Under the pieces are notes generated by a model. The model saw only the letters and a program-made list of their open reading frames with translations, had not been told where the DNA came from and did no database searches. DNA of 22,611 nt from a virus (Duplodnaviria > Heunggongvirae > Uroviricota > Caudoviricetes). The number at the start of each line of letters is the position of its first letter. Position 1 is the first letter of the stretch. Shown here one piece after another: positions 1 through 13,121 of this stretch. The stretch is taken from the IMG/VR virus record IMGVR_UViG_2687453449_000006; one strand, given 5' to 3'. Position numbers and translations under genes: made by a program.

Positions 1-276
1 TTACCGACTGCGGCCTGAGTTTTTTAAGTGACGTAAAATCGTGTTGAGGCCAACGCCCATAATGCGGGCAGTTGCCCGGCATCCAACGCCATTCATGGCC
101 ATATCAATGATTTTCTGGTGCGTACCGGGTTGAGAAGCGGTGTAAGTGAACTGCAGTTGCCATGTTTTACGGCAGTGAGAGCAGAGATAGCGCTGATGTC
201 CGGCGGTGCTTTTGCCGTTACGCACCACCCCGTCAGTAGCTGAACAGGAGGGACAGCTGATAGAAACAGAAGCCAC
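1..276 (-). CDS. insA: IS1 InsA transposition regulator (91 aa)
   Basis: Translation [43 protein letters not shown]... matches IS1 InsA as I recall it, including the zinc-finger CPSC...CSHC motif; ATG at 276. Confidence 0.9.
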
Positions 277-331
277 TGGAGCACCTCAAAAACACCATCA
301 TACACTAAATCAGTAAGTTGGCAGCATCACC
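1..331 (-). mobile_element. IS1 insertion sequence, partial (left end with terminal inverted repeat; remainder lies outside the window)
   Basis: Positions 320-331 are the reverse complement of the IS1 terminal repeat GGTGATGCTGCC; the insA frame runs from 276 to the window edge, which coincides with the insA stop codon. insB and the other terminus are not in the window. Confidence 0.9.
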
Positions 332-534
332 TAACTAGCCATTTCAATGTAACAATTAACCCTTAAAATAAACCCAGAAGGTTATTAACTAAATCACATA
401 GAAAACCATCAATTATAGCATGTATAAAATAGGCGACAGCAACCCAATTACAAATTAATGGTTCCAGAATATCACATCAAAAAAACGCTGTATAATATTA
501 TAATTAACATGTAGACAACTTGTAATAAACATTA

Positions 535-1284
535 TCAGTCAATTGTTTTGTTTATTCCATCTGTGACGCCGATTATTTTCTCAAAATAATGAGATGGCGT
601 GACACCATAATAATCTTTAAATGCACATATGAAATATGAAGTACTGTTATAGCCACATTTCTGGGCTACGACATTGATAGAATAAGAGTTTGAAGTTATG
701 AGTTTTTTTGCATACCTCATCCTAGTATCTCTCAATATTTCAGTAAATGACGTTCCTTCATCCCTTAATCTTTTTTTTATTAAACTTTCACTCGTATAAA
801 TCAATTCCGCAATATCTTTTAAATGCCATTGCCGCTCAATATTAAAACTGATTATTCCAGTAATTTTACAGGTAAATGTATTTATATTTGTTAGTATAAA
901 TGAATTTACACTTTCGCGTTTTTTGAACATGGCAAGTAAGGATATACATAGTCTTTCTTTTAACCAAAGGGAGTGTGAGTCTGCTATTTTAATCCCTTCA
1001 AACAGAGAAAAAACAAGCGATAATGGAGGTTCCTCTTCAGCAATATAGCCATTCTTATCAAGAGTAAATTTGCCAGGCAGCTCATTATTCACGTCGATAA
1101 AAAAGGATAAACATGTTTTCTTATCTATATCAACAATTCTTAGTTTAGAGGGGCATACTGGTAACTCCCTTCTAATTTTGTCGCTTACAATAAACAATGA
1201 ATTTTTTTTGAACGAGATAACTCTCCTGTTTATAATTAAATCAAATGATTGACAGATGAAAACTACGGAGCAAACATAATCCAT
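535..1284 (-). CDS. appY: AraC-family transcriptional regulator AppY (249 aa)
   Basis: 249-aa ORF with a true ATG at 1284; C-terminal AraC-type HTH (..[27 protein letters not shown]..); N-terminus [21 protein letters not shown] matches AppY as recalled; strongly AT-rich coding sequence. Confidence 0.88.
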
Positions 1285-1860
1285 CTTGCACCTATCATAA
1301 AATTAAAACAAGTTGATAGCAGTCAAATAACAACCAATTAAATACACAATCATAATCAGGATGATGTGCATTTATATTTTTATACACAAAATTATAGTTT
1401 GCAAATTTTAATAAATTTCATTTAAGATTAAATTATTATATGTATATTGTTTTTTATTCTAACGTATTTCAAAGTTACATTTTTCAACGCTTACTATACT
1501 TTTTATTAACATAAACTCACTACAACGCACCTGAAACCTCTTGCTATATATATGTCAACCGTTTGAATTTAAAATAAAAAGAGTATCATTTTTACTTGCA
1601 TTTCTTATCAAGTCACATTCAACAACAGTAAAAAAACATTATTAGAACCATTCAATTAACAAAAAACCAACATCCAGCTTGCTTAATTTTTCTTTATTAA
1701 ACGACATTGAAAATCAATTGATAAAATACATCTAAACAACCTTTTGGGGCGCAAAAGCATAACATCAAACAAACAAATAACACACCGAAAAAACTCACAA
1801 TTAATAACCTATGATATACATACTGTTTATTATGGTTGAATAAGCCACTCGATATCTGGT
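1285..1860 (-). promoter_or_regulatory. Long AT-rich upstream/leader region of appY (likely promoter and nucleoid-protein-bound region)
   Basis: About 575 bp of very AT-rich non-coding sequence with no credible ORF, directly upstream of the appY ATG; no specific promoter elements were mapped. Confidence 0.4.
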
Positions 1861-1959
1861 GCTACGGAAGTGTCCACACGGTTTAGCAGCACCCGATACT
1901 TTTTCCAGGCTTCCAGCAACGAGTTTTCTTCCTCCGTTGCATATACAGCTCACCTTTTT

Positions 1960-2253
1960 TCACCCACGATTAACCAACAGCCAGACCAGCAGACACGCCA
2001 CCACCGGCACAGCAAAATCCATCAGGCTTGCCACATCCCATGCACGTGTATCAAAACCGCCCCACCACGGCATATTCATTCGCTTGCCATGCCCGAACAT
2101 TTCGATCCAGCGATATTCTGCCTGGGTGTGTTCACGCGCAATGAAGAACGTACAACCGGCTATCGCCCCGTAAGCCCAGTTCCCGGTAAAAAGACCAATC
2201 AGTAGCTGCGCAGCCACAGCACAAAGCGCATGAAGGAAAGGTGTTATATCCAT
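1960..2253 (-). CDS. Small hydrophobic protein (97 aa), two predicted transmembrane segments; function unknown
   Basis: ATG at 2253 preceded by a strong Shine-Dalgarno (AAGGAGG, reverse complement of 2257-2263) and starting 11 nt after the stop of the upstream ORF; hydrophobic stretches ALCAVAAQLLIGLFTGNWAYGAIAGCTFFIA and LMDFAVPVVACLLVWLLV. Confidence 0.55.
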   Translation of the reverse strand: MDITPFLHALCAVAAQLLIGLFTGNWAYGAIAGCTFFIAREHTQAEYRWIEMFGHGKRMNMPWWGGFDTRAWDVASLMDFAVPVVACLLVWLLVNRG

Positions 2254-2263
2254 TACTCCTCCT

Positions 2264-2968
2264 TTATCCGATATCGCTTCGGGAAACGGATAACAACTTT
2301 AATTCTGACTCAAGTTCATCAACTCTTTCAGTCAGCTTCTGGATATGGTGAATCAGTGGAACAACCAGACGTTCGTACATTACACCTTCGGCAACAAGGC
2401 CATTGCTGGAAATAGCTTCAGGAGCATCATCTTCGTTAGCTGGTCGCCAGTGTACAAACTGAGGGGCAATTTCTCCTACTTCCTCGGCAATCAATCCGTA
2501 GAATCCCCAGTCACGCCTGTCATTTTCGCATTGCGACCTGTACCACACAGGGCGCATCCTGAAAATGAGATCGGCGTGCTCTGAATCTATCGTCTCTACT
2601 GAATGTTTATAGCGAATAGACGATGTTGACCGCAGTACAGACGAAATTGCAGGGTCAGGATTAAGATAAAGGTTTGCCGCCGCTGTAGTCGTGCCCAATC
2701 CCCACATATAAAACGCTTCACGGCCAGTCAACGGGTAAAAATCTCCACCATAACGACCGCTTTCCAGATCGTTCACTTCCAGTTTGTTTTTCAGCTTATT
2801 ATCAACTTCAGTTTTTGTGTATCTGGTGCTGATATCCTGCTTTGCACTGGTCATATCAGTCTGAAGCGTTGATACTTTTCCGTTAATTGAGGAAATATCT
2901 TCCTTAGTTTTACTGACATCTCCCTTTAGCGTGGTGATATCTCCTGGAATTACTGTCGATGTAGCCAT
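2264..2968 (-). CDS. Tail-fiber-like protein (234 aa) with a C-terminal intramolecular-chaperone (peptidase S74-like) domain
   Basis: ATG at 2968 with SD GAGGGAG; C-terminal region SSIRYKHSVETIDSEHADLIFRMRPVWYRS...FYGLIAEEVGEIAPQFVHW...MYERLVVPLIHHIQKLTERVDELESEL resembles the S-D-x-R-x-K ... GLIAQEV ... coiled-coil pattern of endosialidase-chaperone domains (from memory, not searched). Confidence 0.55.
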   Translation of the reverse strand: MATSTVIPGDITTLKGDVSKTKEDISSINGKVSTLQTDMTSAKQDISTRYTKTEVDNKLKNKLEVNDLESGRYGGDFYPLTGREAFYMWGLGTTTAAANLYLNPDPAISSVLRSTSSIRYKHSVETIDSEHADLIFRMRPVWYRSQCENDRRDWGFYGLIAEEVGEIAPQFVHWRPANEDDAPEAISSNGLVAEGVMYERLVVPLIHHIQKLTERVDELESELKLLSVSRSDIG

Positions 2969-2977
2969 TTGTCTCCC

Positions 2978-3259
2978 TCACATCCAGCCACGAAGTTGAT
3001 GCTCAACAACAACCGCGTATTTATCGAATATTGACGATTTTTTTACATCATTAATGATGCGCACGTTTACAAAATATCCGTCTTCCTTAACACATACCGG
3101 TTCGCCATCTTCAGTCAGTTCTCCGGTTTCTTTGTACACGTTACCTATCACGTCAATAAGAATATCATCCTGCATCGACTCGTCATCATAATAGCCAATA
3201 CTCTCCATAAAGGCCGAAAAGTCGGCCCTGTCTGCAAATTTGAGTGTTAAATCTTTCAT
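2978..3259 (-). CDS. Acidic hypothetical protein (93 aa), translationally coupled to stf
   Basis: ATG at 3259-3257 overlaps the stf stop TGA at 3258-3256 (ATGA overlap); SD-like GGGGAGAG upstream; no recognisable family. Confidence 0.5.
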   Translation of the reverse strand: MKDLTLKFADRADFSAFMESIGYYDDESMQDDILIDVIGNVYKETGELTEDGEPVCVKEDGYFVNVRIINDVKKSSIFDKYAVVVEHQLRGWM

Positions 3260-5601
3260 TTAATACTCTCCCCCATTTGCGCATCAGTTAATTCTTTATG
3301 CCAGATACGCAGATTACGGATATGACCAAAAAGATGATACTCCCCATTAGTGCCCTGCCCTCCAATTCGCAATACTGCCCGTGGAACAATTGAAGTCCAT
3401 GTTGTTTTTGCCGCAACAGATAATTCACCATTACATACGGCCTGAACATCTCCATCAGCGCCACAACGGAAGCCTGAAATGATTTTCCTCTGGGTTGTTG
3501 CCACATATTTATTACACCCTCCCATAGAAATAAAAGGAGAACCGGCATCAGAGAAATTATTACCACGGAATCCATGCGTGAACAGACCATTTTCCTGATA
3601 ATCTTTAACATTAAAGATTAATGGTGATTTGCTGGGAGGGATATCCCAGTTTTTATTAACTTCAACAAGAGCACTGAATGGTAATCGGTGAATATTGTTT
3701 CTTACAGGTATTGTCACCATGTCGCTGGAGCGAGTGCCAGGAGCCCCTTCAGTAATGATAAATGACGTCCTGTACGACCCAATCTCCGCCTGAGGCATCG
3801 CAATATCTAACGTAGAGCCATTGGGGATAATACTGATTCCAGGCATCGCCAGGATTTCAAATCTTGAGCTGATTATCATTTCCGCATCTGCAAAAAGAGT
3901 GGCGGTAAACAACCACCATTCACCGACTCTTTCTGCCGTCACCGTCACATTATTTCCATGAACAACATTTCCCGTAACAGGATCCAGAACTGCATCTGAA
4001 TGAAAAACAAACGCACCATTATCAGACATTTTTCCGAACCTTGCACGACACCGGGAATTATCACTTTTCGTCAGACACGATATCGTCGTATAAGAACCTG
4101 CCGGGCAGGTGTAAGCATCATTCGTGTTTACAGCAATTGCCTGATATCCTTGTGCTGTCGGATTTTCATTAATAACAGTTATCCTTCCATAGTTAAACCC
4201 CTTATCACTGTCGAACGACTCAACAGACACACTACCCGTGTTATTCCATGCTTCTGGTGTATTTGAATTTCTGAAATAGTTTGTTCTCTGTCCTTCAATC
4301 AGCAAACCTTCTCGTTCAAATCGCGGTTCGTCAACTTCAGCAACGGTTAATACACCTGATTTATTAATGTATGTTGCACCTGATGCGCGTTTGAAGCTAA
4401 CAACCTTATCGGATGGCATTTTAATAACATCATCACCTACGGTTATTTGCTTATAACCAGGCGAAAAGCCAGCAAGCATATCCAGTGAATCGTTAAACGG
4501 TATCCACACATCAGGCAGTGGCTGTAAGACATATTTATACGGCTCTGCTGCCTGGCTTGCATACTCTCTGGCTGCATCCTCACTTGCTTTAGCTGCTGTC
4601 TGGCTTGCTGCCGATGCTTGCGCCGAGTTCGCCGCTGCAGTCTCGCTTGTCTTTGCATTGGTTTCACTGGTTTTTGCAGCTTTTTGACTGTTTGCTGATG
4701 CAGTGGCAGAAGCAGCCGCCGCACTTGCAGAACCAGCTGCAGCACTCTCGCTTTCGGCTGCTGCATCCTGACTGCTTTTCGCCGCAGTTTCGCTGGCTTT
4801 GGCATTTGTTTCGCTGGTCTTCGCTGCCGTCTGGCTGGACTTTGCGTTAGTTTCGCTCGTCTTCGCTGCTTTCTGGCTGTTAGCCGCAGCAGTTGCTGAT
4901 CCAGCTGCTGCAGTCGCAGAACCGGCTGCCGCGCTCTCGCTTTCGGCTGCTGCATTCTGGCTATTTTTCGCCGCAGTTTCACTGGCTTTGGCATTCGTTT
5001 CGCTGGTTTTCGCTGCCGTCTGGCTGGACTTTGCGTTGGTTTCGCTCGTCTTTGCGGCTGTCTCGCTGTTTTTCGCGTTGGTTTCTGATTTTTTGGCTGC
5101 TGTCGCGGAGTTTGCCGATGCAGTCTGCGAGGACGCTGCCGCCTGTGCGCTGTTAGCTGCATTCGTTTCTGAGGTTTTCGCCGCGTTCTTCGATGATGCC
5201 GCTGCAGTTTCGGATTTCTTTGCCGCCGCTGCGCTCTGAGAGGCGGCTTCGGCGTTGCGTGCCGCTTCTTCCACCATTGCCTCAAAACGACGCAATGCCT
5301 CCGGCATGACATCATCTTCCGTCATGGCACCGAGAAAATCATTCAGCGTACCTGGTCTGGAACCTTCATAGACGGTAATGGTTCCGGCATGTGAAGGCGG
5401 AAAACCTTCAACCAGCAGGGTGACGCTGTACTGGCCATGCTCAACATCCATGCTGTAACGCCCGGCTTCATCCGGATTTTCAGAGGCCACCGTGTTCACC
5501 AGTACCGTGGTGCTGTTACGCTTTGCCTTCAGTTGAATAGTGCAGTTCTGTATTGGTTTTCCCGCACCATCTTTCAGCACACCTGAAATCTGTACTGCCA
5601 T
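3256..5601 (-). CDS. stf: Side tail fiber protein, lambda Stf-like N-terminus, Ala/Ser/Thr-rich repetitive shaft, LamG/lectin-like C-terminal domain
   Basis: N-terminus MAVQISGVLKDGAGKPIQNCTIQLKAKRNSTTV...GRYSMDVEHGQYSV...FPPSHAGTITVYE matches lambda Stf as recalled; true ATG at 5601-5599 with SD GGAGTG (the track's M at 5607 is a GTG). C-terminal ...LRIGGQGTNGEYHLFGHIRNLRIWHKELTDAQM is typical of LamG-like jelly-roll domains. Confidence 0.85.
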   Translation of the reverse strand: MAVQISGVLKDGAGKPIQNCTIQLKAKRNSTTVLVNTVASENPDEAGRYSMDVEHGQYSVTLLVEGFPPSHAGTITVYEGSRPGTLNDFLGAMTEDDVMPEALRRFEAMVEEAARNAEAASQSAAAAKKSETAAASSKNAAKTSETNAANSAQAAASSQTASANSATAAKKSETNAKNSETAAKTSETNAKSSQTAAKTSETNAKASETAAKNSQNAAAESESAAAGSATAAAGSATAAANSQKAAKTSETNAKSSQTAAKTSETNAKASETAAKSSQDAAAESESAAAGSASAAAASATASANSQKAAKTSETNAKTSETAAANSAQASAASQTAAKASEDAAREYASQAAEPYKYVLQPLPDVWIPFNDSLDMLAGFSPGYKQITVGDDVIKMPSDKVVSFKRASGATYINKSGVLTVAEVDEPRFEREGLLIEGQRTNYFRNSNTPEAWNNTGSVSVESFDSDKGFNYGRITVINENPTAQGYQAIAVNTNDAYTCPAGSYTTISCLTKSDNSRCRARFGKMSDNGAFVFHSDAVLDPVTGNVVHGNNVTVTAERVGEWWLFTATLFADAEMIISSRFEILAMPGISIIPNGSTLDIAMPQAEIGSYRTSFIITEGAPGTRSSDMVTIPVRNNIHRLPFSALVEVNKNWDIPPSKSPLIFNVKDYQENGLFTHGFRGNNFSDAGSPFISMGGCNKYVATTQRKIISGFRCGADGDVQAVCNGELSVAAKTTWTSIVPRAVLRIGGQGTNGEYHLFGHIRNLRIWHKELTDAQMGESIK
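4560..5260 (-). repeat. In-frame tandem repeats inside stf (189-bp / 63-codon unit, about 2.5 copies, with 42-bp sub-repeats)
   Basis: The motif ctctcgctttcggctgctgca occurs at 4745 and 4934 (offset 189 bp) and the surrounding ~105 nt are near-identical; protein repeats AAKTSETNAKSSQTAAKTSETNAKASETAAK...AAAESESAAAGSA. Confidence 0.8.
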
Positions 5602-5659
5602 ATTCACTCCACAAATAAAAAAGGCGCCATTTCTGGCGCCCGTATCTGGGTTATAAAAT

Positions 5660-8506
5660 TCAGCTAATCATGATGCCTGCAGTGGCTTTCTTCATCACCA
5701 CAACCAGCAAATCGCTGATACTTGCTGTGGGATACCAGCCATTTACCAGCCATGCCGATACAGAAAATTCCAGTGTCATTACACCACTGCCTGCAGGCAT
5801 ATCAATAACACCCGTATATATCAGCGTATTATCCAGAGCCGTTCGGTTATAAATTTCAGCACCGTTTTTTCGTACTATCAGACGGCATGAGGAGTAGATA
5901 TCAGTATGATCTTGCTCATGTTTAGCGCCACTGAATGCCACCGCCGGAATAACAATTTGCCGGTCAAACGGCTGATCGTCATAAACCCTGACGGTAATGG
6001 TCCCTGATGGCCACCGCTCCGGTGCACGGGAGTCCCGGGGGAAAGCTTTGCCCACTGTTTTAACGAGATCGCCTTCAATCTGGTTCGCGGACAGTTTTCC
6101 CAGAACCCGGCAGTTCTCGTTAATCGTGACGTTGTTGAGCGTCCCGGAGTTCGCATTCACGTTACCGCTAATATCGGCATTTTTCGCCGTCAGCCGCCCG
6201 TCCGGTGTCAGGGAAAATGCCGGAGGATTACCGCCGCTGGTAATGGTGGGAGCCGTCAGATATTTCAGGAACACTTCGTTCATGAATATCTGATCGCCCT
6301 GACCAACAAACATCGGCTTTGTGTTGCCATTCGCAGGATTAATCATCGCAATCCTGTCCGCCGCCAGCAGCACCTGACTCTGCATACCGTCAGGGGTATT
6401 CTCAATACCGGCACCAATACCCGCGATATAAAGGCGTCCGTCCTGCATCTGCTGCAGCTTCACAGCCCACATGCTGTTCAGGTTATTATTTGTATCAACC
6501 TGAACCTTCTGTATCTGCTGGATTGCCGCACTCTGGTCTTCCAGTTTCTTATTGACGGTCTGCGTGATTTCATTACTGACATCCGTGATGGACGTTCTGA
6601 TTTCCGCCAGGTCAGGCGCAAGCTGACCGTTATCAATCTGCGTCCACAACTCCTGAGCCAGATGGGTTTTCCCTATCTCTCCTTTGAAAAAATTCAGATA
6701 GCCGGATGCATCATCACTCGGCTGGCCAACAGCCTCCACGAATGCCGATTTGCCAACGGTGTTCACACTGCGGATGTAAAAATAATAATCATGGCCCGGT
6801 TTGATATTGATACTGGCGGCTATCCAGTACAGCGCCGTGCCAAGATAGCGTGCTGTGGTTTCAACCTGCCTGATATCCGCAATCCGCTTTTCCGAGAACC
6901 AGAACTCAAACTGTACCGTCGGATCATAAACCGCAAGATGCGGCGTGGCGGTTATCTGAAAATACCCCGGTGTCAGCTCAATCTGCGACGGCGCTGCCGG
7001 TGCGGCAATCCGGAACGATACCGACGCCGGCTCGCCCTGCTGCCCCCACGCATTTACTGCCCGGACTGTCAGCCTGTAGTTCCCCAGAGCCAGTTGTGTG
7101 AAGCGGTAAGTGGTTTCCGTCGTCCGGGCCGTGCTGACCAGTCGCTCACGGCCGTCATCCGCTGCCACGGTCAGGCGAAGCAGGAAGCTCACGCCCTTCA
7201 CCACCTTCGGCGTATCCCAGCGGGCCAGCACCTGGTATTCCCCGCTGTCTGCGGTGACTTCTGCGGTCAGGTGCTGCACCGCTGGCGGCGTGACACCATT
7301 TACCGTGCCGCTCTGGTCGCCGTCAAAGTGCGCCCCGTTATCCACGATGGCCTCTTTTTCCGGTACATGCTGCACGGCGGTGATGGCATACGTGCCGTCG
7401 TCGTTCTCACGGATACTCACGCAGCGGAACAGGCGCTGGCGCAACGTCGGCAGCTTCAGCCCCCATACGCTGTATTCAGCAACGCCGTCAGGAACACGGC
7501 TCACTTTCACCTTCACGCCGTCGGTGACGGACTGAACCTCCACGCTGACCGGACTCCCCTGCCCGTCAACCAGGCTTATCAGCGTGGTGCCGGAAGATGG
7601 CAGCGTGATTTCACGGTCGAGCGTCAGCGTCCGGGTCTGGCTGTTTACCGCCAGCACGCGCCCGCCGGTGCGGATACCGGCATAGTCATCATCGCAGATT
7701 TCAATGACATCGCCCGGTACATGGCGAAGCCCTTCGGCACCCACGCTGAAGTCCACGGTCTGCGTTTCCAGCAGCTCCGTTTTAATCAGCCACAGCCCGG
7801 CGCGGTGTGCCTGCCCCCGGCTGGTACAGCCAAAGGCATCCATCTTCGTGACGTTACGACCGTAACGGAGAATGGCCTGCGTATCTTCAACAAGCTCTGT
7901 CGCCGTCTCCCAGCCGTTATTCGGGTCAATCCAGTTCACCTCAACGGCATTATGGCGGTCCTTCAGGGCGCTGAAGCTGTAGCGGAACGGCGCGCCATCA
8001 TCCGGCATCACCACATTACTGCGGTTATAGGTCCACACCTTATCTGATGGTCGGTCCTGCACGAACGTCAGCGTCTGCCCGTTCCATACCGGCATACAGC
8101 GCATCGCCGAGCAGAAATCACTGAGCACATCCCACGCCTTACGCTGCGTGGTCAGGTAGGCATTACAGGTGATGCGCGGCTCCGTGCCGCCAAAACCGTC
8201 CGGCACTGACTGGTCGCAGTACTGGCCGATGACATACAGCGCCCATTTATCCACATCCGCCGCACCAAGACGTTTCCCCATGCCGTAGCGCGGGTGGGTC
8301 AGCATATCCCACAGACACCAGGCCGGGTTGTTGCTGTATGCCGGCTTAAACGTTCCGTCCCAGATACCGCTGTATTGCCGCGTCTGCGGGTTATAGTTCG
8401 ACGGCACCTGCAGAATGCGCCCGCGAAGATGATAATTACGGCTCACCTGCTGGCTGCCGAACTGCTCCGAGTCCACCTGCACGCCGACCAGTGCCGTGTT
8501 CGGGTA
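5660..8506 (-). pseudogene. J: Tail tip / host specificity protein J, N-terminally truncated (C-terminal ~948 codons retained)
   Basis: Translation (..[41 protein letters not shown]... to ...[14 protein letters not shown]...) is collinear with lambda J as recalled. The frame is closed by a stop at 8507-8509 and has no in-frame ATG at its 5' end (first codon in the track is a GTG at 8482). Confidence 0.85.
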
Positions 8507-9011
8507 TCAGTTCATCCAGCGCGGCTGCTTTGTTCATGGCTTTGATGATATCCCGTTTCAGGAAATCAACATGTCGGTTTTCCAGTTCCGGAAAACGCCG
8601 CTGCACCGACAGGGGGATCCCGTCGAGAATACTGGCAATTTCACCTGCGATCCGCGACAGCACGAAAGTACAGAATGCGGTTTCCACCACTTCAGCGGAG
8701 TCTCTGGCATTTTTCAGCTCCTGTGCGTCGGCCTGCGCACGCGTAAGTCGATGGCGTTCGTACTCAATAGTCCCTGGCTGGAGATCTGTCTCGCTGGCCT
8801 GCCGCAGTTCTTCAACTTCCCGGCGCAGCTTTTCGTTCTCAATTTCAGCATCCCTTTCGGCATACCATCTTATAACGGCGGCAGAGTCATAAAGCACCTC
8901 ATTACCCTTGCCACCGCCTCGCAGAACGGGCATTCCCTGTTCCTGCCAGTTCTGAATGGTACGGATACTCGCACCGAAAATGTCAGCCAGCTGCTTTTTG
9001 TTGACTTCCAT
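8436..9011 (-). CDS. nohD: Terminase small subunit Nu1 homolog, C-terminally truncated and fused to 23 out-of-frame codons of J sequence (191 aa)
   Basis: ATG at 9011; residues 1-168 ([46 protein letters not shown]...[14 protein letters not shown]) match lambda Nu1 including the N-terminal winged HTH; after ...CTGATACC (about 8503) the sequence switches to J-derived DNA. Confidence 0.85.
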
Positions 9012-9260
9012 TGTTCATTCCACGGCCAAAAACAGAGAAAGGAAACGACAGAGGCCCAAAAGCTCGTTTTCAGCACCTGTCGTTTCCTTTCTTTTCAGGG
9101 GGTATTTTAAATAAAAACATTAAGTTACGACGAAGAAGAACGGAAATGCCTTAAACCGGAAAATTTTCATAAATAGCGAAAACCCGCGAGGTCGCCGCCC
9201 CGTAACCTGTCGGATCGCCGGAAAGGACCCGCAAAATGATAATAATTATCATCTACATGT
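9012..9260 (-). promoter_or_regulatory. Lambda-type cos region (cosB with R-site/IHF-site-like elements, cosN at 9189-9200, cosQ-side sequence to about 9260)
   Basis: The minus strand reads ...CCGGCGATCCGACAGGTTACGGGGCGGCGACCTCGCGGGTTTTCGCTATTTATGAAAATTTTCCGGTTTAAGG...GAAAGGAAACGACAGGTGCTGAAA..., almost identical to the lambda cohesive-end region as recalled; the 12-nt GGGCGGCGACCT is the reverse complement of 9189-9200. Confidence 0.8.
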
Positions 9261-9399
9261 CACAACGTGCATCTACGCCATCAAACCACGTCAAATAATC
9301 AATTATGACGCAGGTATCGTATTAATTGATCTGCATCAACTTAACGTAAAAACAACTTCAGACAATACAAATCAGCGACACTGAATACGGGGCAACCTC

Positions 9400-9594
9400 A
9401 TGTCAACTAAGAACAGAACCCGCAGAACAACAACCCGCAACATCCGCTTTCCTAACCAAATGATTGAACAAATTAACATCGCTCTTGAGCAAAAAGGGTC
9501 TGGGAATTTCTCAGCCTGGGTCATTGAAGCCTGCCGTCGGAGACTAACGTCAGAAAAGAGAGCATATACATCAATCCAGAGTGATGATGAATAA
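9400..9594 (+). CDS. ylcI: Small basic protein YlcI-like (64 aa), possible ribbon-helix-helix fold
   Basis: ATG at 9400; MSTKNRTRRTTTRNIRFPNQMIEQINIALEQKGSGNFSAWVIEACRRRL has a basic N-terminus followed by a beta-strand/helix/helix pattern; matches the DLP12 ylcI product as recalled. Confidence 0.7.
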   Translation: MSTKNRTRRTTTRNIRFPNQMIEQINIALEQKGSGNFSAWVIEACRRRLTSEKRAYTSIQSDDE

Positions 9595-9954
9595 ACATCC
9601 CGGTTTCTTCCACCATCGCACCGGAAAAGCGACTATGAGGGTAACCCTGCGTCTGTCAGCACAGTAAAACCCGGTGTGCATCGTTTTTGATTATTCCCGC
9701 ACACTCACGCAGAAGGAATTCCCCGTCGGGCTACGGTCATGGTTAATGCGGGAATACGGCGACGATACAGCGCAGCTAAAAGGGTAATGGACAGAAAGAG
9801 CGGTTTATTTCATTCCACAGGATTCTGAGTGCCCCCCCTCCTCCAATAGGCTGAGCATCCACCTATATAGTTTTAATTTTCATCAATCCATTTAACTATC
9901 GTTTAATTGTTGTCACATAGGATTCTGCCGTTTTTAACAATGCAGGATAATAAG

Positions 9955-10248
9955 ATGAAAAAAATGTTGTTTTCTGCCGCTCTGGCAATGCTTATTACAG
10001 GATGTGCTCAACAGACGTTTACTGTTGGAAACAAACCGACAGCAGTAACACCAAAGGAAACCATCACCCATCACTTCTTCGTTTCGGGAATTGGACAGGA
10101 GAAAACTGTTGATGCAGCCAAAATTTGTGGCGGCGCAGAAAATGTTGTTAAAACAGAAACCCAGCAAACATTCGTAAATGGATTGCTCGGTTTTATTACT
10201 TTAGGCATTTATACTCCGCTGGAAGCGCGTGTGTATTGCTCACAATAA
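9955..10248 (+). CDS. borD: Bor-family outer-membrane lipoprotein (97 aa)
   Basis: ATG at 9955 (the track start at 9907 is upstream, in frame); signal peptide plus lipobox MKKMLFSAALAMLITGC; sequence matches lambda Bor/DLP12 BorD as recalled. Confidence 0.9.
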   Translation: MKKMLFSAALAMLITGCAQQTFTVGNKPTAVTPKETITHHFFVSGIGQEKTVDAAKICGGAENVVKTETQQTFVNGLLGFITLGIYTPLEARVYCSQ

Positions 10249-10258
10249 TTGCATGAGT

Positions 10259-10276
10259 TGCCCATCGATATGGGCA
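10259..10276. terminator. Short hairpin between convergent bor and Rz (possible bidirectional terminator)
   Basis: TGCCCAT-cgat-ATGGGCA inverted repeat in the 31-bp gap between the bor stop (10246-10248) and the Rz stop (10280-10282). Confidence 0.35.
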
Positions 10277-10279
10277 GCT

Positions 10280-10741
10280 CTATCTGCACTGCTCATTAAT
10301 ATACTTCTGGGTTCCTTCCAGTTGTTTTTGCATAGTGATCAGCCTCTCTCTGAGGGTGAAATAATCCCGTTCAGCGGTGTCTGCCAGTCGGGGGGAGGCT
10401 GCATTATCCACGCCGGAGGCGGTGGTGGCTTCACGCACTGACTGACAGACTGCTTTGATGTGCAACCGACGACGACCAGCGGCAACATCATCACGCAGAG
10501 CATCATTTTCAGCTTTCGCATTAGCTAACTCCTTCGTGTATTTTTCATCCAGTGCAGCAACATCACGCTGGCGCATCTGCATGTCAGTAATTGCCGCGTT
10601 CGCCAGCTTCAGTTCTCTGGCATTTTTGTCGCGCTGGGCTTTGTAGGTAATGGCGTTATCACGGTAATGATTAACAGCCCATGACAGGCAGACGATGATG
10701 CAGATAACCAGAGCGGAGATAATCGCGGTTACTCTGTTCAT
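10280..10741 (-). CDS. rzpD: Rz i-spanin (153 aa)
   Basis: True ATG at 10741-10739 overlapping the endolysin stop (ATGA); N-terminal TM segment, coiled-coil, C-terminal ...YINEQCR; the track's M at 10753 is a GTG. Confidence 0.88.
10339..10521 (-). CDS. rzoD: Rz1 o-spanin lipoprotein embedded in the +1 frame of Rz (60 aa)
   Basis: ATG at 10521; lipobox LVVVGC and proline-rich stretch [15 protein letters not shown]; entirely nested inside rzpD. Confidence 0.85.
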
Positions 10742-11235
10742 TGCTGACCCCACAAACAGATTTCACGCTCAATCTCACGACGAGTCATGAGACCTTTCCA
10801 TTGCTTACCGCCAGCATATGTCCAGCGACGTAGCTGATCACATGCGCCTTTGATATCGCCCTGGTTTATTTTGCGAAGAAGCGTCGATGTTCTGAAATTG
10901 CCAGCGCCCACGTTGTAAACGAACGAGTAAAGAGCGCCGCGCGTTGTTTCCGGTATATCAACTTTTATGTACGGGTTAATTTGTCTGGCGACCGTGGCAA
11001 GGTCTTTATTCAGGAGGGCTTTGCATTCTGCTTTGGTATACGTTTTACCGAGCATGATGTCTTTTCCTGTATGCCCGTGACATACAGTCCATACACCAAC
11101 AATATCTTTGTATGGTATGTAGCTGACACCTTCCAGACCATCGTTACCACTTGGGCCAGTGATTAACACTGATGCTATAGCAATTGCTCCGCCACCAATA
11201 GCAGCAGCAACGGCTTTTCGTAATGATGGAGGCAT
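10738..11235 (-). CDS. rrrD: SAR endolysin (phage 21 R-type lysozyme, 165 aa)
   Basis: ATG at 11235; N-terminal signal-arrest-release segment [20 protein letters not shown] followed by a lysozyme domain; matches R21/RrrD as recalled. Confidence 0.9.
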
Positions 11236-11450
11236 TATTCACCTCTCGCAGCCTTGCGCTTATCTTCTTTAATCTTGAAATAAAGGTTTGTCAGGTACGT
11301 CAGCAGGCCAAATACCAGGCTACCCAGCACACCTATTGCTGCCCACTGTGAGGGCGTGACTTTATCGAGCAGCTGTAAAAACCAGTAACCGGCACTACCT
11401 GCTGAGGTGCCATAGGCGACACCCGTTGTTAACTTATCCATGGATTTCAT
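11235..11450 (-). CDS. essD: Pinholin S21-type holin/antiholin with dual-start motif (71/68 aa)
   Basis: ATG at 11450 and a second ATG three codons later (MKSMDK...), two TM segments, charged C-terminus [13 protein letters not shown]; the track's longer 86-aa form begins at a TTG. Confidence 0.88.
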
Positions 11451-12038
11451 AACCCCACCTCGCAGACAAAGCGGGTGTAAATTGAGGGAATACAACGTAT
11501 CGCAAAAAAGCAGAAACGTAACAGACTCGGAGTCAGTGAATAACTCAGGTATTGAGTTATCAGCTAATATCGAGACTCAAAAAATGGAAAAACCAGCTCG
11601 ACGGCGGGTTTAAGCTGTGTGACGAAGTAACCACTCTTAACAGCATAACCAATTTTTTACGTACGTAAACCACTGAATGATATTTATGAGAATGCTACCG
11701 AGTGTTCAAAACACCACCACAAATATATAAGAAAACCTCAACAAATAACCAATAAATAATTTCCGGCGTTATTTTTAGTTGATTTAAATTAAACCACTGA
11801 ATTATAGAACCCCCATAAATAACAGCCATTAATATAAATTAGCTAATAGGTTTATTTTTGTTCAAATAAGAGCCATAAATAGGTTTCGATAGAAAAAGTT
11901 CAGATAAAAATAGAGATCTACTTCACAAATTAAATGAGAAACTAAAACTTACATCTTGAAATAATCACATTGATTAGATGAATATTTATCGCGCAGTGAC
12001 ATCATTTTTTAATAATAGTTCAAAAAAAAGGGCTCACG

Positions 12039-13121
12039 ATGAAAAAATTAACAGTGGCAATTTCTGCTGTAGCTGCATCAGTACTGATGGCGATGTCTGC
12101 TCAGGCAGCTGAAATTTATAATAAAGACAGTAACAAGCTGGATCTGTACGGGAAAGTTAATGCCAAGCACTACTTTTCCTCTAACGATGCAGATGATGGT
12201 GATACTACTTATGCCCGTCTTGGCTTCAAAGGTGAAACCCAAATCAACGATCAACTGACTGGTTTCGGTCAGTGGGAATATGAATTCAAAGGCAACCGCG
12301 CTGAATCTCAAGGTTCCTCCAAAGACAAAACCCGTCTTGCATTTGCAGGCCTGAAATTCGGTGACTACGGCTCAATCGATTACGGCCGTAACTACGGTGT
12401 AGCATACGACATCGGTGCGTGGACTGACGTTCTGCCAGAATTCGGTGGCGATACCTGGACCCAAACAGATGTGTTCATGACTGGTCGCACCACTGGTGTT
12501 GCAACCTATCGTAACAACGACTTCTTTGGTCTGGTCGATGGCCTGAACTTTGCTGCTCAGTATCAGGGTAAAAATGACCGCACTGACGTAACTGAAGCCA
12601 ATGGTGATGGTTTCGGTTTCTCCACTACTTATGAGTATGAAGGATTCGGCGTGGGTGCAACCTATGCTAAATCAGATCGCACTGACGGTCAGGTCGCCTA
12701 TGGTAAGAGCAAATTCAATGCCTCCGGCAAAAATGCGGAAGTATGGGCTGCAGGCCTGAAATATGATGCGAACAATATCTATCTGGCTACCACATATTCT
12801 GAAACTCAGAATATGACCGTTTTTGGTAATAACCATATTGCAAACAAAGCACAAAACTTTGAAGCAGTAGCACAATATCAGTTTGACTTCGGTCTGCGAC
12901 CATCTGTTGCTTACCTTCAGTCAAAAGGTAAAGACCTTGGTGTTCATGGTGACCGAGACTTAGTCAAGTATGTCGATGTCGGTGCTACTTACTACTTTAA
13001 TAAAAACATGTCCACTTTTGTTGATTACAAAATCAACTTAATTGACGATAGTAAGTTTACCAAAACAGCTGGTATTGATACCGACGACATCGTCGCTGTA
13101 GGTCTGGTGTATCAGTTCTAA
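12039..13121 (+). CDS. nmpC: Outer-membrane general porin NmpC (OmpC/OmpF family), apparently intact (360 aa)
   Basis: ATG at 12039; signal peptide [30 protein letters not shown]; porin signature with C-terminal ...VAVGLVYQF; uninterrupted 360-codon frame. Confidence 0.9.

Follow-up and report, generated by a model that had tools for sequence, protein, structure and literature searches.

Arc and Mnt of phage P22, plasmid CopG and the N-terminal domain of NikR are small DNA-binding units of the ribbon-helix-helix (RHH) fold. Arc and Mnt are encoded in the immunity region and have known operators, and residues N11 and R13 of Arc contact bases in the Arc-operator complex. The bor and lom genes of phage lambda, which are morons, encode envelope proteins with known expression in the lysogen. 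E. coli K-12 carries YlcI in the DLP12 prophage and YnfO in the Qin prophage, and the literature searched yielded no study on the function of ylcI, ynfO or DUF3950. The subject here is the ylcI gene in a 22,611-nucleotide stretch of a Caudoviricetes genome, IMG/VR record IMGVR_UViG_2687453449_000006, the whole of which is referred to as the window. That the ylcI open reading frame (ORF) belongs to a catalogued DUF family is already known, as is the arrangement of the window, which is that of phage 434. What is new is the correction to the lambda gene list, a reasoned assignment of YlcI to the RHH fold, and the description of the gap downstream of ylcI as a module joint.

The window is the E. 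coli B copy (REL606 and BL21) of the DLP12 prophage, with 100% identity over 1,249 bases around ylcI, and the stretch from cosN through bor shares 99.5% identity with phage 434 and many 'Lambda_ev' phages. The late genes S, R and Rz (10280-10753) are on the minus strand, followed by cos and then nu1 (8436-9011), and ylcI and bor are the sole genes on the plus strand of the lysis/packaging stretch. The ylcI ORF begins with an ATG at 9400, ends with a stop codon at 9592-9594 and codes for 64 aa. An earlier note, made from the DNA letters alone, had described a product with a basic N-terminus, transcribed away from cos and nu1. Both points hold, as the 64-aa product includes MSTKNRTRRTTTRN, and the gene points away from cosN (9189-9200), cosQ (9224-9230) and nu1, the last on the minus strand.

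YlcI matches Pfam DUF3950 (PF13132) with 72.8 bits (cutoff 25) and NCBIfam YlcI_YnfO_N (NF041551) with 37.6 bits (cutoff 30), and falls into PHROG 949 (function unknown, 1.2e-35). Judged by its substitution pattern, ylcI is a real gene of lambdoid phages and is under strong constraint. In the first 52 codons, 26 synonymous and 8 non-synonymous differences separate the gene from the copy in an HK97-type prophage (L004), and 19 and 10, respectively, from the copy in Stx phage BP-4795. The corresponding rates are 0.9-2.6 per synonymous site (dS) and 0.07-0.09 per non-synonymous site (dN), with a dN/dS of 0.03-0.09 for these two pairs and 0.03-0.15 over all informative pairs. In 25 diverged homologues (33-57% identity) the IRF(P) strand and the motif NFS(A/S)WV..AC are kept, with I15, R16, F37 and V41 invariant, F17, S38, W40, A44 and C45 conserved in at least 90%, and N36 nearly conserved, while the tail beyond about residue 50 is swapped between alleles. 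It is on account of these ratios and of the retained IRF...NFSAWV..AC pattern that ylcI is regarded as a real gene.

That ylcI is a non-functional chance ORF, preserved by conservation of the underlying cos-adjacent DNA, is therefore scarcely credible. The two lambda reference records lack an annotation for it, its Shine-Dalgarno sequence is weak and a consensus promoter was not found. In addition, DNA identity among the lambda-type copies is about 98%, which makes these copies alone uninformative on coding versus DNA-level constraint. However, against L004 and BP-4795 synonymous sites are near saturation (dS 0.8-2.6) and dN is low (0.07-0.10), which effectively refutes a non-gene, and homologues in unrelated genomic contexts retain the motif, the HK97-type copies with good ribosome-binding sites. 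The family is narrow, with 143 clusters (50% identity) at E <= 0.001 among 1.84 billion representatives, and most of these clusters are frameshifted copies of the lambda allele on contigs of about 3.5 kb. Hundreds of database 'YlcI' proteins (P0001-P0259) are on contigs of about 3.3-3.6 kb labelled Staphylococcus aureus, Veillonella, Klebsiella or 'Campylobacter phage', and are frameshifted or error-laden copies of the lambda allele (e.g. OR974317, OR974324 and MW057783). This contig pattern would fit contamination by the nanopore lambda control amplicon.

Lambda had been said to have no gene in this position, which is not the case. The same 64-aa ORF is present at 48109-48303 (complement) in NC_001416, where 62 of 64 residues are identical to those of the window (Q60K and D63E differ), and the approximately 200 bp from the ORF to the right genome end share 95% identity with the window. 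The coding sequence at 48109-48303 is unannotated in both NC_001416 and J02459, and is annotated in phage 434 and several RefSeq relatives. In the genome-wide CRISPR interference table for lambda, which follows annotated genes, lambdap79 is the last entry before cos and the ylcI ORF has none (PMC10695390). The missing annotation would explain this absence. The ORF is located just downstream of lambdap79 (lambda 47738-47944), knock-down of which was scored as essential and explained by the authors as polarity on the late transcript (PMC10695390). If YlcI is a DNA-binding regulator, the reference annotation of the best-studied phage omits a strongly constrained regulatory gene 170 bp from cos. 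If ylcI is only a marginal accessory gene, what is gained is a fix to the lambda annotation and the assignment of DUF3950 to the RHH fold.

The RHH fold is favoured for YlcI by a structural model and a fold search. The monomer was modelled with AlphaFold2 from a 25-sequence alignment (mean predicted local distance difference test score, pLDDT, 69), and consists of an extended N-terminus (13-18) and helices at 19-32 and 37-60, with the glycine turn G33-S34-G35-N36-F37-S38 leading into the second helix as in RHH proteins. The top 50 Foldseek matches in the PDB are mostly RHH proteins or domains (CopG-family StnY, NikR, Arc, CopG, MazE, ParD, VapB, CopA_SO and pCXC100 ParB) and include the Arc entry 1PAR. 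Matches to NikR, Arc, CopG and StnY have a root-mean-square deviation of about 1.1-1.9 Å over 35-44 aligned columns, and the target-normalised TM-score of the RHH matches reaches 0.74, with a best E of 0.7. The CopG-family entry 9kkd was found both by profile search (E 0.64) and by fold search. Using hhalign, N14-I-R-F-P18 of YlcI falls on N11-L-R-W-P15 of Arc (P = 0.014, probability 3%). Because of this register match to Arc N11 and R13, N14 and R16 would be likely to contact bases, with I15 and F17 in core positions.

The predicted core of YlcI is like those of Arc, Mnt, CopG and the NikR N-terminal domain in size (about 45-50 residues) and in the G-x-x-N/S turn ahead of helix B, and shares with Arc the strand-helix-turn-helix pattern with N-[IL]-R-[FW]-P in register. 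It differs from all four in the lack of significant sequence similarity, in the length of its basic N-terminal arm (with K, R or N at 7 of the first 13 positions) and in a variable C-terminal tail. Arc and Mnt also differ in location, as YlcI is encoded at the lysis/packaging junction and its operator is only a candidate. Several results weigh against the assignment. The beta-ribbon is not formed in the monomer model, as expected without a partner chain, all Foldseek matches in the PDB have E >= 0.7 and none is significant, and Pfam RHH_6 is matched by only 1 of the 25 homologues (E 0.09). Matches to PHROG profiles are likewise sub-threshold (Arc-like E 0.21, HicB-like weak), and no significant sequence or profile similarity to an RHH family was found by hhalign, PDB profile, Pfam or PHROG searches. 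Thus, the likeness to CopG/Arc-type binders proposed in the earlier note is favoured by the model and by the fold matches but by no single significant score. The structure prediction that it had suggested as a check returned two helices with RHH matches but no ribbon in the monomer. No solved structure for the family was found in PDB sequence and profile searches. A single-sequence search of the PDB gave only matches to uL16, which were judged spurious.

The position of the gene is conserved more widely than its surroundings. K-12 DLP12 has the order borD, ybcV, ybcW, ylcI, 388 bp, nohD, and lambda is alike, while Qin has nohA, 388 bp, ynfO, 58 bp and ydfO (DUF1398), with ynfO and ydfO co-directional. 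The first 59 residues of the window protein are identical to K-12 YlcI, and both K-12 genes have the same place beside nohD or nohA and the same 388-bp cos-containing upstream region (98% identity). Comparison with K-12 DLP12, which the earlier note had proposed, did reveal additional genes: both K-12 DLP12 and lambda have ybcW and ybcV (lambdap79 and lambdap78) between ylcI and bor, whereas this module is absent from E. coli B and from phage 434, which shares the exact layout of the window, leaving a 360-bp joint. In BP-4795 and the L004 prophage the packaging genes are of an unrelated type (HNH, a Terminase_2 small terminase TerS, and TerL). There, the DUF3950 gene is the single counter-oriented gene between the lysis cassette and packaging, divergent from HNH and 41 bp from its start codon. 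Counter-orientation is the same in lambda, 434, K-12 DLP12 and Qin. What is conserved, as far as these genomes indicate, is a place at the lysis/packaging junction and an orientation antisense to the late operon; proximity to a lambda-type cos is not. Lambda-type and HK97-type copies have an identical putative DNA-reading strand, TTTRNIRFPN, despite unrelated upstream DNA, and no 8-10-mer is shared by the three upstream regions of these copies.

Antisense placement is typical of accessory loci (PMC7067206), and late mRNA crosses the ylcI region (PMC10695390). Overlapping convergent transcripts of ybcW and ylcI have been reported from K-12 RNA-seq (PMC12288877). Like the lambda morons bor and lom, ylcI is counter-oriented to the late operon and lower in GC than its flanks, and it adjoins bor on the same strand (PMC7067206). 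The GC content is 0.41-0.44 from cos to ylcI and 0.38-0.43 in bor, compared with 0.52-0.58 in nu1 and 0.48-0.55 in Rz. Orientation and GC are therefore those of a moron, while a consensus promoter or terminator was not found and the evidence for transcription is indirect. Unlike bor and lom, ylcI codes for a putative DNA binder, and it is far more constrained and more fixed in position than a typical moron. A DUF1398 gene is found near ylcI also in lambda and K-12 DLP12, and one database protein (P0165) is a fusion of YnfO with a YdfO-like DUF1398 domain (compare L009 4257-4958). DUF3950 and DUF1398 may be functionally linked.

Upstream of ylcI, 170 bp from the gene in lambda-type phages, is cosQ, and 2 nt from cosQ is a Fur box that is unique in the window and was matched in 0 of 100 shuffles. 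It overlaps the -10 element of a minus-strand promoter-like site, known from its consensus match, that points through cosQ, cosN and cosB into nu1. The K-12 counterparts are among the strongest Fur sites predicted in that genome, with 25.3 bits at nohB and 22.3 bits at nohA (position -233). For the Qin (nohA) site, Fur binding was shown by gel shift and in an in-vivo selection, and the DLP12 (nohB) site is a strong prediction (PMC2189734). The sites were assigned to nohA and nohB alone because that study predates the annotation of ynfO and ylcI. Nothing useful was found in the literature on a link of ydfO or ybcV to the Fur regulon. An inverted repeat with 13-bp arms, between the Fur box and ylcI, is conserved in lambda, 434, K-12 DLP12 and Qin, and is a candidate operator.

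Homologues of YlcI are common to helper-type phages and to satellites like the capsid-forming phage-inducible chromosomal islands (cf-PICIs) (PMC13612085). Three satellites were examined, namely the one in L004 and Pasteurella Pmp7 (both cf-PICI-like, with packaging or capsid genes) and L010 (an int-primase island on a short contig). In all three the DUF3950 genes are on the strand opposite to int-alpA and the replication/packaging genes, and in L004 and L010 the start of the DUF3950 gene adjoins the start of the replication gene block. In two satellite proteins, P0251 and P0193, DUF3950 is fused to a part that matches the N-terminal helix-turn-helix (HTH) of Terminase_2 above the gathering score. 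This HTH part shares 61-66% identity with the TerS of the BP-4795 type and 53-58% with the L004 satellite's own TerS. These fusions are the sole evidence that ties the family to packaging. A precedent for mimicry of a TerS domain exists in the Rpp proteins of PICIs (PMC9026076), and the domain in P0251 and P0193 resembles the helper TerS DNA-binding domain as Rpp mimics that of lambda. The architecture differs, as Rpp is a winged HTH with a coiled coil and is encoded next to the PICI cos, whereas the fusions are predicted to combine an RHH-like domain with a Terminase_2 HTH and are encoded beside int-alpA on the opposite strand. YlcI of the window has no TerS-like domain. The strand residues are RNIRFPNQ in phage copies and KGIRFPHE in satellite copies.

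The L004 locus (CP027459.1, 3713563-3725925; L004 positions 90-8040 and 8040-12160) contains a cf-PICI-like satellite (int, alpA-like, primase, TerS and capsid genes) apparently inserted in the terL of an HK97-type prophage. Two DUF3950 genes are oriented opposite to all other genes of this satellite, and the HTH of P0251 is 64-66% identical to the prophage-type TerS. In Pmp7 (L012, OR544138), an annotated 224-aa 'transcriptional repressor' at 4435-5109 on the minus strand is antisense to an unannotated DUF3950 coding sequence. The latter has a tblastn match at 4853-5011 (plus strand) that begins MATGNKNNKSLKKGIRFPHELIQQI...NFSSWVIDAC, with a stop at 5032, inside a GTG ORF at 4778-5032. The annotation as a repressor is probably wrong.

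While ylcI itself is a real and conserved gene with a conserved position and counter-orientation, for the time of expression, DNA binding, target and physiological role of its product we infer the following. YlcI would most likely fold as an RHH dimer and bind DNA via the N-terminal beta-ribbon (residues ~13-18, with N14 and R16 the likely base contacts) and the basic arm (residues 4-13). At the lysis/packaging junction ylcI is the sole gene opposite a 27-kb late transcript, and its expression would thus depend on a promoter of its own, at times of little or no late transcription, in the prophage or the early phase. Antisense expression from its own promoter would in turn make ylcI a moron-type accessory regulator like its neighbour bor, outside the packaging machinery. 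The preferred account, distinctly possible and put forward tentatively, is an accessory RHH regulator that is made in the prophage or early phase without recourse to the late operon and is not a component of packaging. Confidence in any specific target is much lower than in this general model. Such a target could be the junction before the first packaging gene (nu1 here, HNH-terS in HK97-type phages), where sequence-specific repression by YlcI would help to hold the terminase silent in the lysogen. Cutting of a chromosomal cos would be harmful there, making silencing useful, and the Fur-box promoter-like site aimed at nu1 may be a promoter in need of it. The suggestion of the earlier note that the divergent nu1 transcript could be regulated gains unexpected support from this site, of which YlcI is no more than a conceivable regulator. 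Several observations weigh against a regulator of this kind. No protein-level or DNA-binding evidence for YlcI was found in the searched literature, and neither a consensus sigma-70 promoter on the plus strand upstream of ylcI nor a predicted terminator after it was found. The candidate operator is absent upstream of the HK97-type copies, and a local upstream operator common to lambda-type and HK97-type contexts is excluded by the unshared upstream DNA. Finally, Qin lacks the conserved block downstream of ylcI (9597-9777), which therefore cannot be a universal YlcI target.

The absence of a conserved local operator across contexts would suit a target elsewhere. A prophage-borne YlcI could bind DNA or protein of incoming phages or resident satellites, with the satellite homologues aimed at the helper in exclusion, satellite control or redirection of packaging. 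The occurrence of the family on both the helper and the satellite side, the fusion of satellite copies to a mimic of the helper-type TerS DNA-binding domain with Rpp as precedent, and an orientation suited to lysogenic expression are all consistent with such competition. However, YlcI matches no PADLOC defence model, the differing phage and satellite strands do not imply a shared target, the lambda-type protein lacks the TerS-like domain and a phenotype is unreported, so that this explanation is considered unlikely. The same fusions, the proximity of ylcI to cosQ in lambda-type phages and a place beside the first packaging gene that is kept across terminase types would also be expected of a packaging accessory with a binding site in or close to cos, perhaps next to cosQ, and an influence on terminase, in line with the idea of the earlier note that YlcI could act at cos. 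Yet all packaging proteins come from the late transcript, to which ylcI is antisense, and the HK97-type gene abuts HNH, not a lambda-type cos, with unrelated intervening DNA. Neither minimal cos fragments nor the fully defined in-vitro packaging of lambda DNA (with terminase, IHF and proheads) is known to need a YlcI-like factor, and a packaging role appears improbable. The many antitoxins among the fold matches (MazE, ParD, VapB and CopA_SO), the weak HicB-like PHROG match and the variable C-terminal tail could point to a protein-binding adaptor or an orphan antitoxin-like RHH protein without a DNA target of its own, binding, for example, terminase or a distant toxin. This is highly improbable, as a toxin-like ORF is absent next to the gene in the contexts examined (the 360 bp downstream are ORF-free here, and DUF1398, HNH or Rz are found elsewhere), and the most constrained parts are the putative DNA-reading strand and the N-terminus of helix B.

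A broader version of the regulator model would make YlcI-family RHH proteins an overlooked regulatory layer at the entrance of the packaging operon in helpers, including lambda, and in capsid-forming satellites. The prophage copy would silence terminase, for example at a Fur-controlled promoter beside cosQ, and TerS-fused satellite copies would act in an Rpp-like manner to redirect or block helper packaging in HNH-type phages. As a whole this broader version is improbable, and neither the Fur-box promoter next to cosQ nor the RHH-TerS fusions of satellites amounts to more than a lead. If YlcI is a DNA-binding regulator, it would tie together the Fur site beside nohA and nohB, long known and unexplained, the counter-oriented junction gene of two unrelated packaging systems, and the DUF3950-TerS fusions of satellites.

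Coordinates of ylcI and surrounding features are listed in Table 1. The cosB assignment is one that we take from established lambda cos anatomy.

Table 1. Features in and around ylcI, with positions in the window.
Feature	Position	Strand	Basis
nu1 (nohD) small-terminase gene, divergent from ylcI	8436-9011	-	Pfam Phage_Nu1 2.9e-101, positions 1-164 of 164
cosB region, terminase-binding repeats (inverted repeat 9036-9092)	9012-9188	-	98% identity to K-12 DLP12 and Qin
cosN 12-nt cohesive-end sequence, GGGCGGCGACCT on late strand	9189-9200	-	Lambda and 434 genome ends align to window 9201
cosQ, GGGTCCT on late strand	9224-9230	-	Position transferred by alignment from phage 434 annotation
Fur box CAAAATGATAATAATTATC, 16/19 to consensus	9232-9250	+	Unique in the window
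Sigma-70 promoter-like site, GTGACA - 16 nt - TATCAT, 10/12	9236-9263	-	Consensus match only
Candidate operator, inverted repeat ATCAATTATGACG - 7 nt - CGTATTAATTGAT at 70-100 bp before ylcI	9298-9330		Repeat search
ylcI ORF, 64 aa and stop, DUF3950/YlcI-YnfO family	9400-9594	+	Profile matches; same ORF in lambda, phage 434, K-12 DLP12 and Qin
ylcI conserved core (residues 13-50): putative beta-strand RNIRFP, helix A, G-S-G-N-F-S turn, helix B	9436-9549	+	25 homologues, model
ylcI-bor interval, 360 bp, mosaic joint	9595-9954		ORF list, alignments
Conserved non-coding block (part A 9597-9666, part B 9667-9777)	9597-9777		Alignments to BP-4795, L004, lambda and K-12
Inverted repeat TATTCCCGCA - 45 nt - TGCGGGAATA in part B	9692-9756		Repeat search
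Poly-C tract, C7 here, ~115 bp upstream of bor ATG	9832-9838		Length-variable across isolates
bor/iss lipoprotein gene, co-oriented with ylcI	9955-10248	+	Pfam Lambda_Bor 6.4e-31; RefSeq name iss

The interval between ylcI and bor had been described as free of credible ORFs, and this was borne out, the longest being 37, 29 and 28 aa. The 37-aa ORF (9674-9787) is intact in L004 and BP-4795, but indels disrupt it in lambda and K-12, and it was rejected as a gene. No tblastn trace of YbcV, YbcW, YdfO, lambdap78 or lambdap79 was found in 9595-9954. The interval is 99.7% identical to phage 434 and is a mosaic of the conserved non-coding block and the bor upstream region (9778-9954). In BP-4795 and L004 the DNA that directly follows the DUF3950 gene is 82-89% identical to the block, which there reaches to within 11 bp of the Rz stop codon, and part B shares 82-83% identity with lambda 46865-46974 and with K-12 DNA between borD and ybcV. 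Counterparts of the block are also located at L008 2507-2617, L013 4400-4580 and L004 9782-9958.

Layouts were counted in 80 close IMG/VR relatives, which are near-identical copies only and give layout statistics without new diversity. The arrangement of the window is the commonest, found in 53 of the 80 with 359-365 bp from ylcI to bor. A further 21 have ylcI and the block without bor, 4 have ybcW and lack the block, and 2 carry extra DNA between 9666 and 9667, where lambda and K-12 carry ybcW-ybcV. The simplest reading is that the block is the ancestral intergenic region between convergent Rz and ylcI, that bor with its upstream region is one insertion, and that ybcW-ybcV of lambda and K-12 is another, at the 9666/9667 joint. 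The block travels with the DUF3950 gene and looks like module-boundary sequence at a moron insertion hotspot.

There is no sign of a structured RNA in the block, with folding z-scores of +0.14 and -0.12 on the two strands. Rfam gave nothing at gathering thresholds in the whole window and only noise (E up to 5) in 9000-10300. Both 10-bp arms of the inverted repeat in part B (9692-9701 and 9747-9756) jointly become TATTCCCGGA in lambda and K-12, and in L004 and BP-4795 2 mismatches disrupt the stem. The poly-C tract upstream of bor is C6 in 20 loci, C7 in 8, C8 in 8 and C10 in 2 among near-identical IMG/VR prophages and phage 434, which could be slipped-strand variation or homopolymer sequencing error.

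At the other end of the region, nu1 overlaps by 47 bp a following ORF of 940 aa (stretch 5660-9011), and the Nu1 domain is complete. The C-terminus of the 940-aa product, judged by eye, seems to resemble tail-fibre proteins of the lambda J type. In that case, everything from A to the 5′ part of J would have been lost, leaving cos, nu1 and ylcI as relics in a defective prophage.

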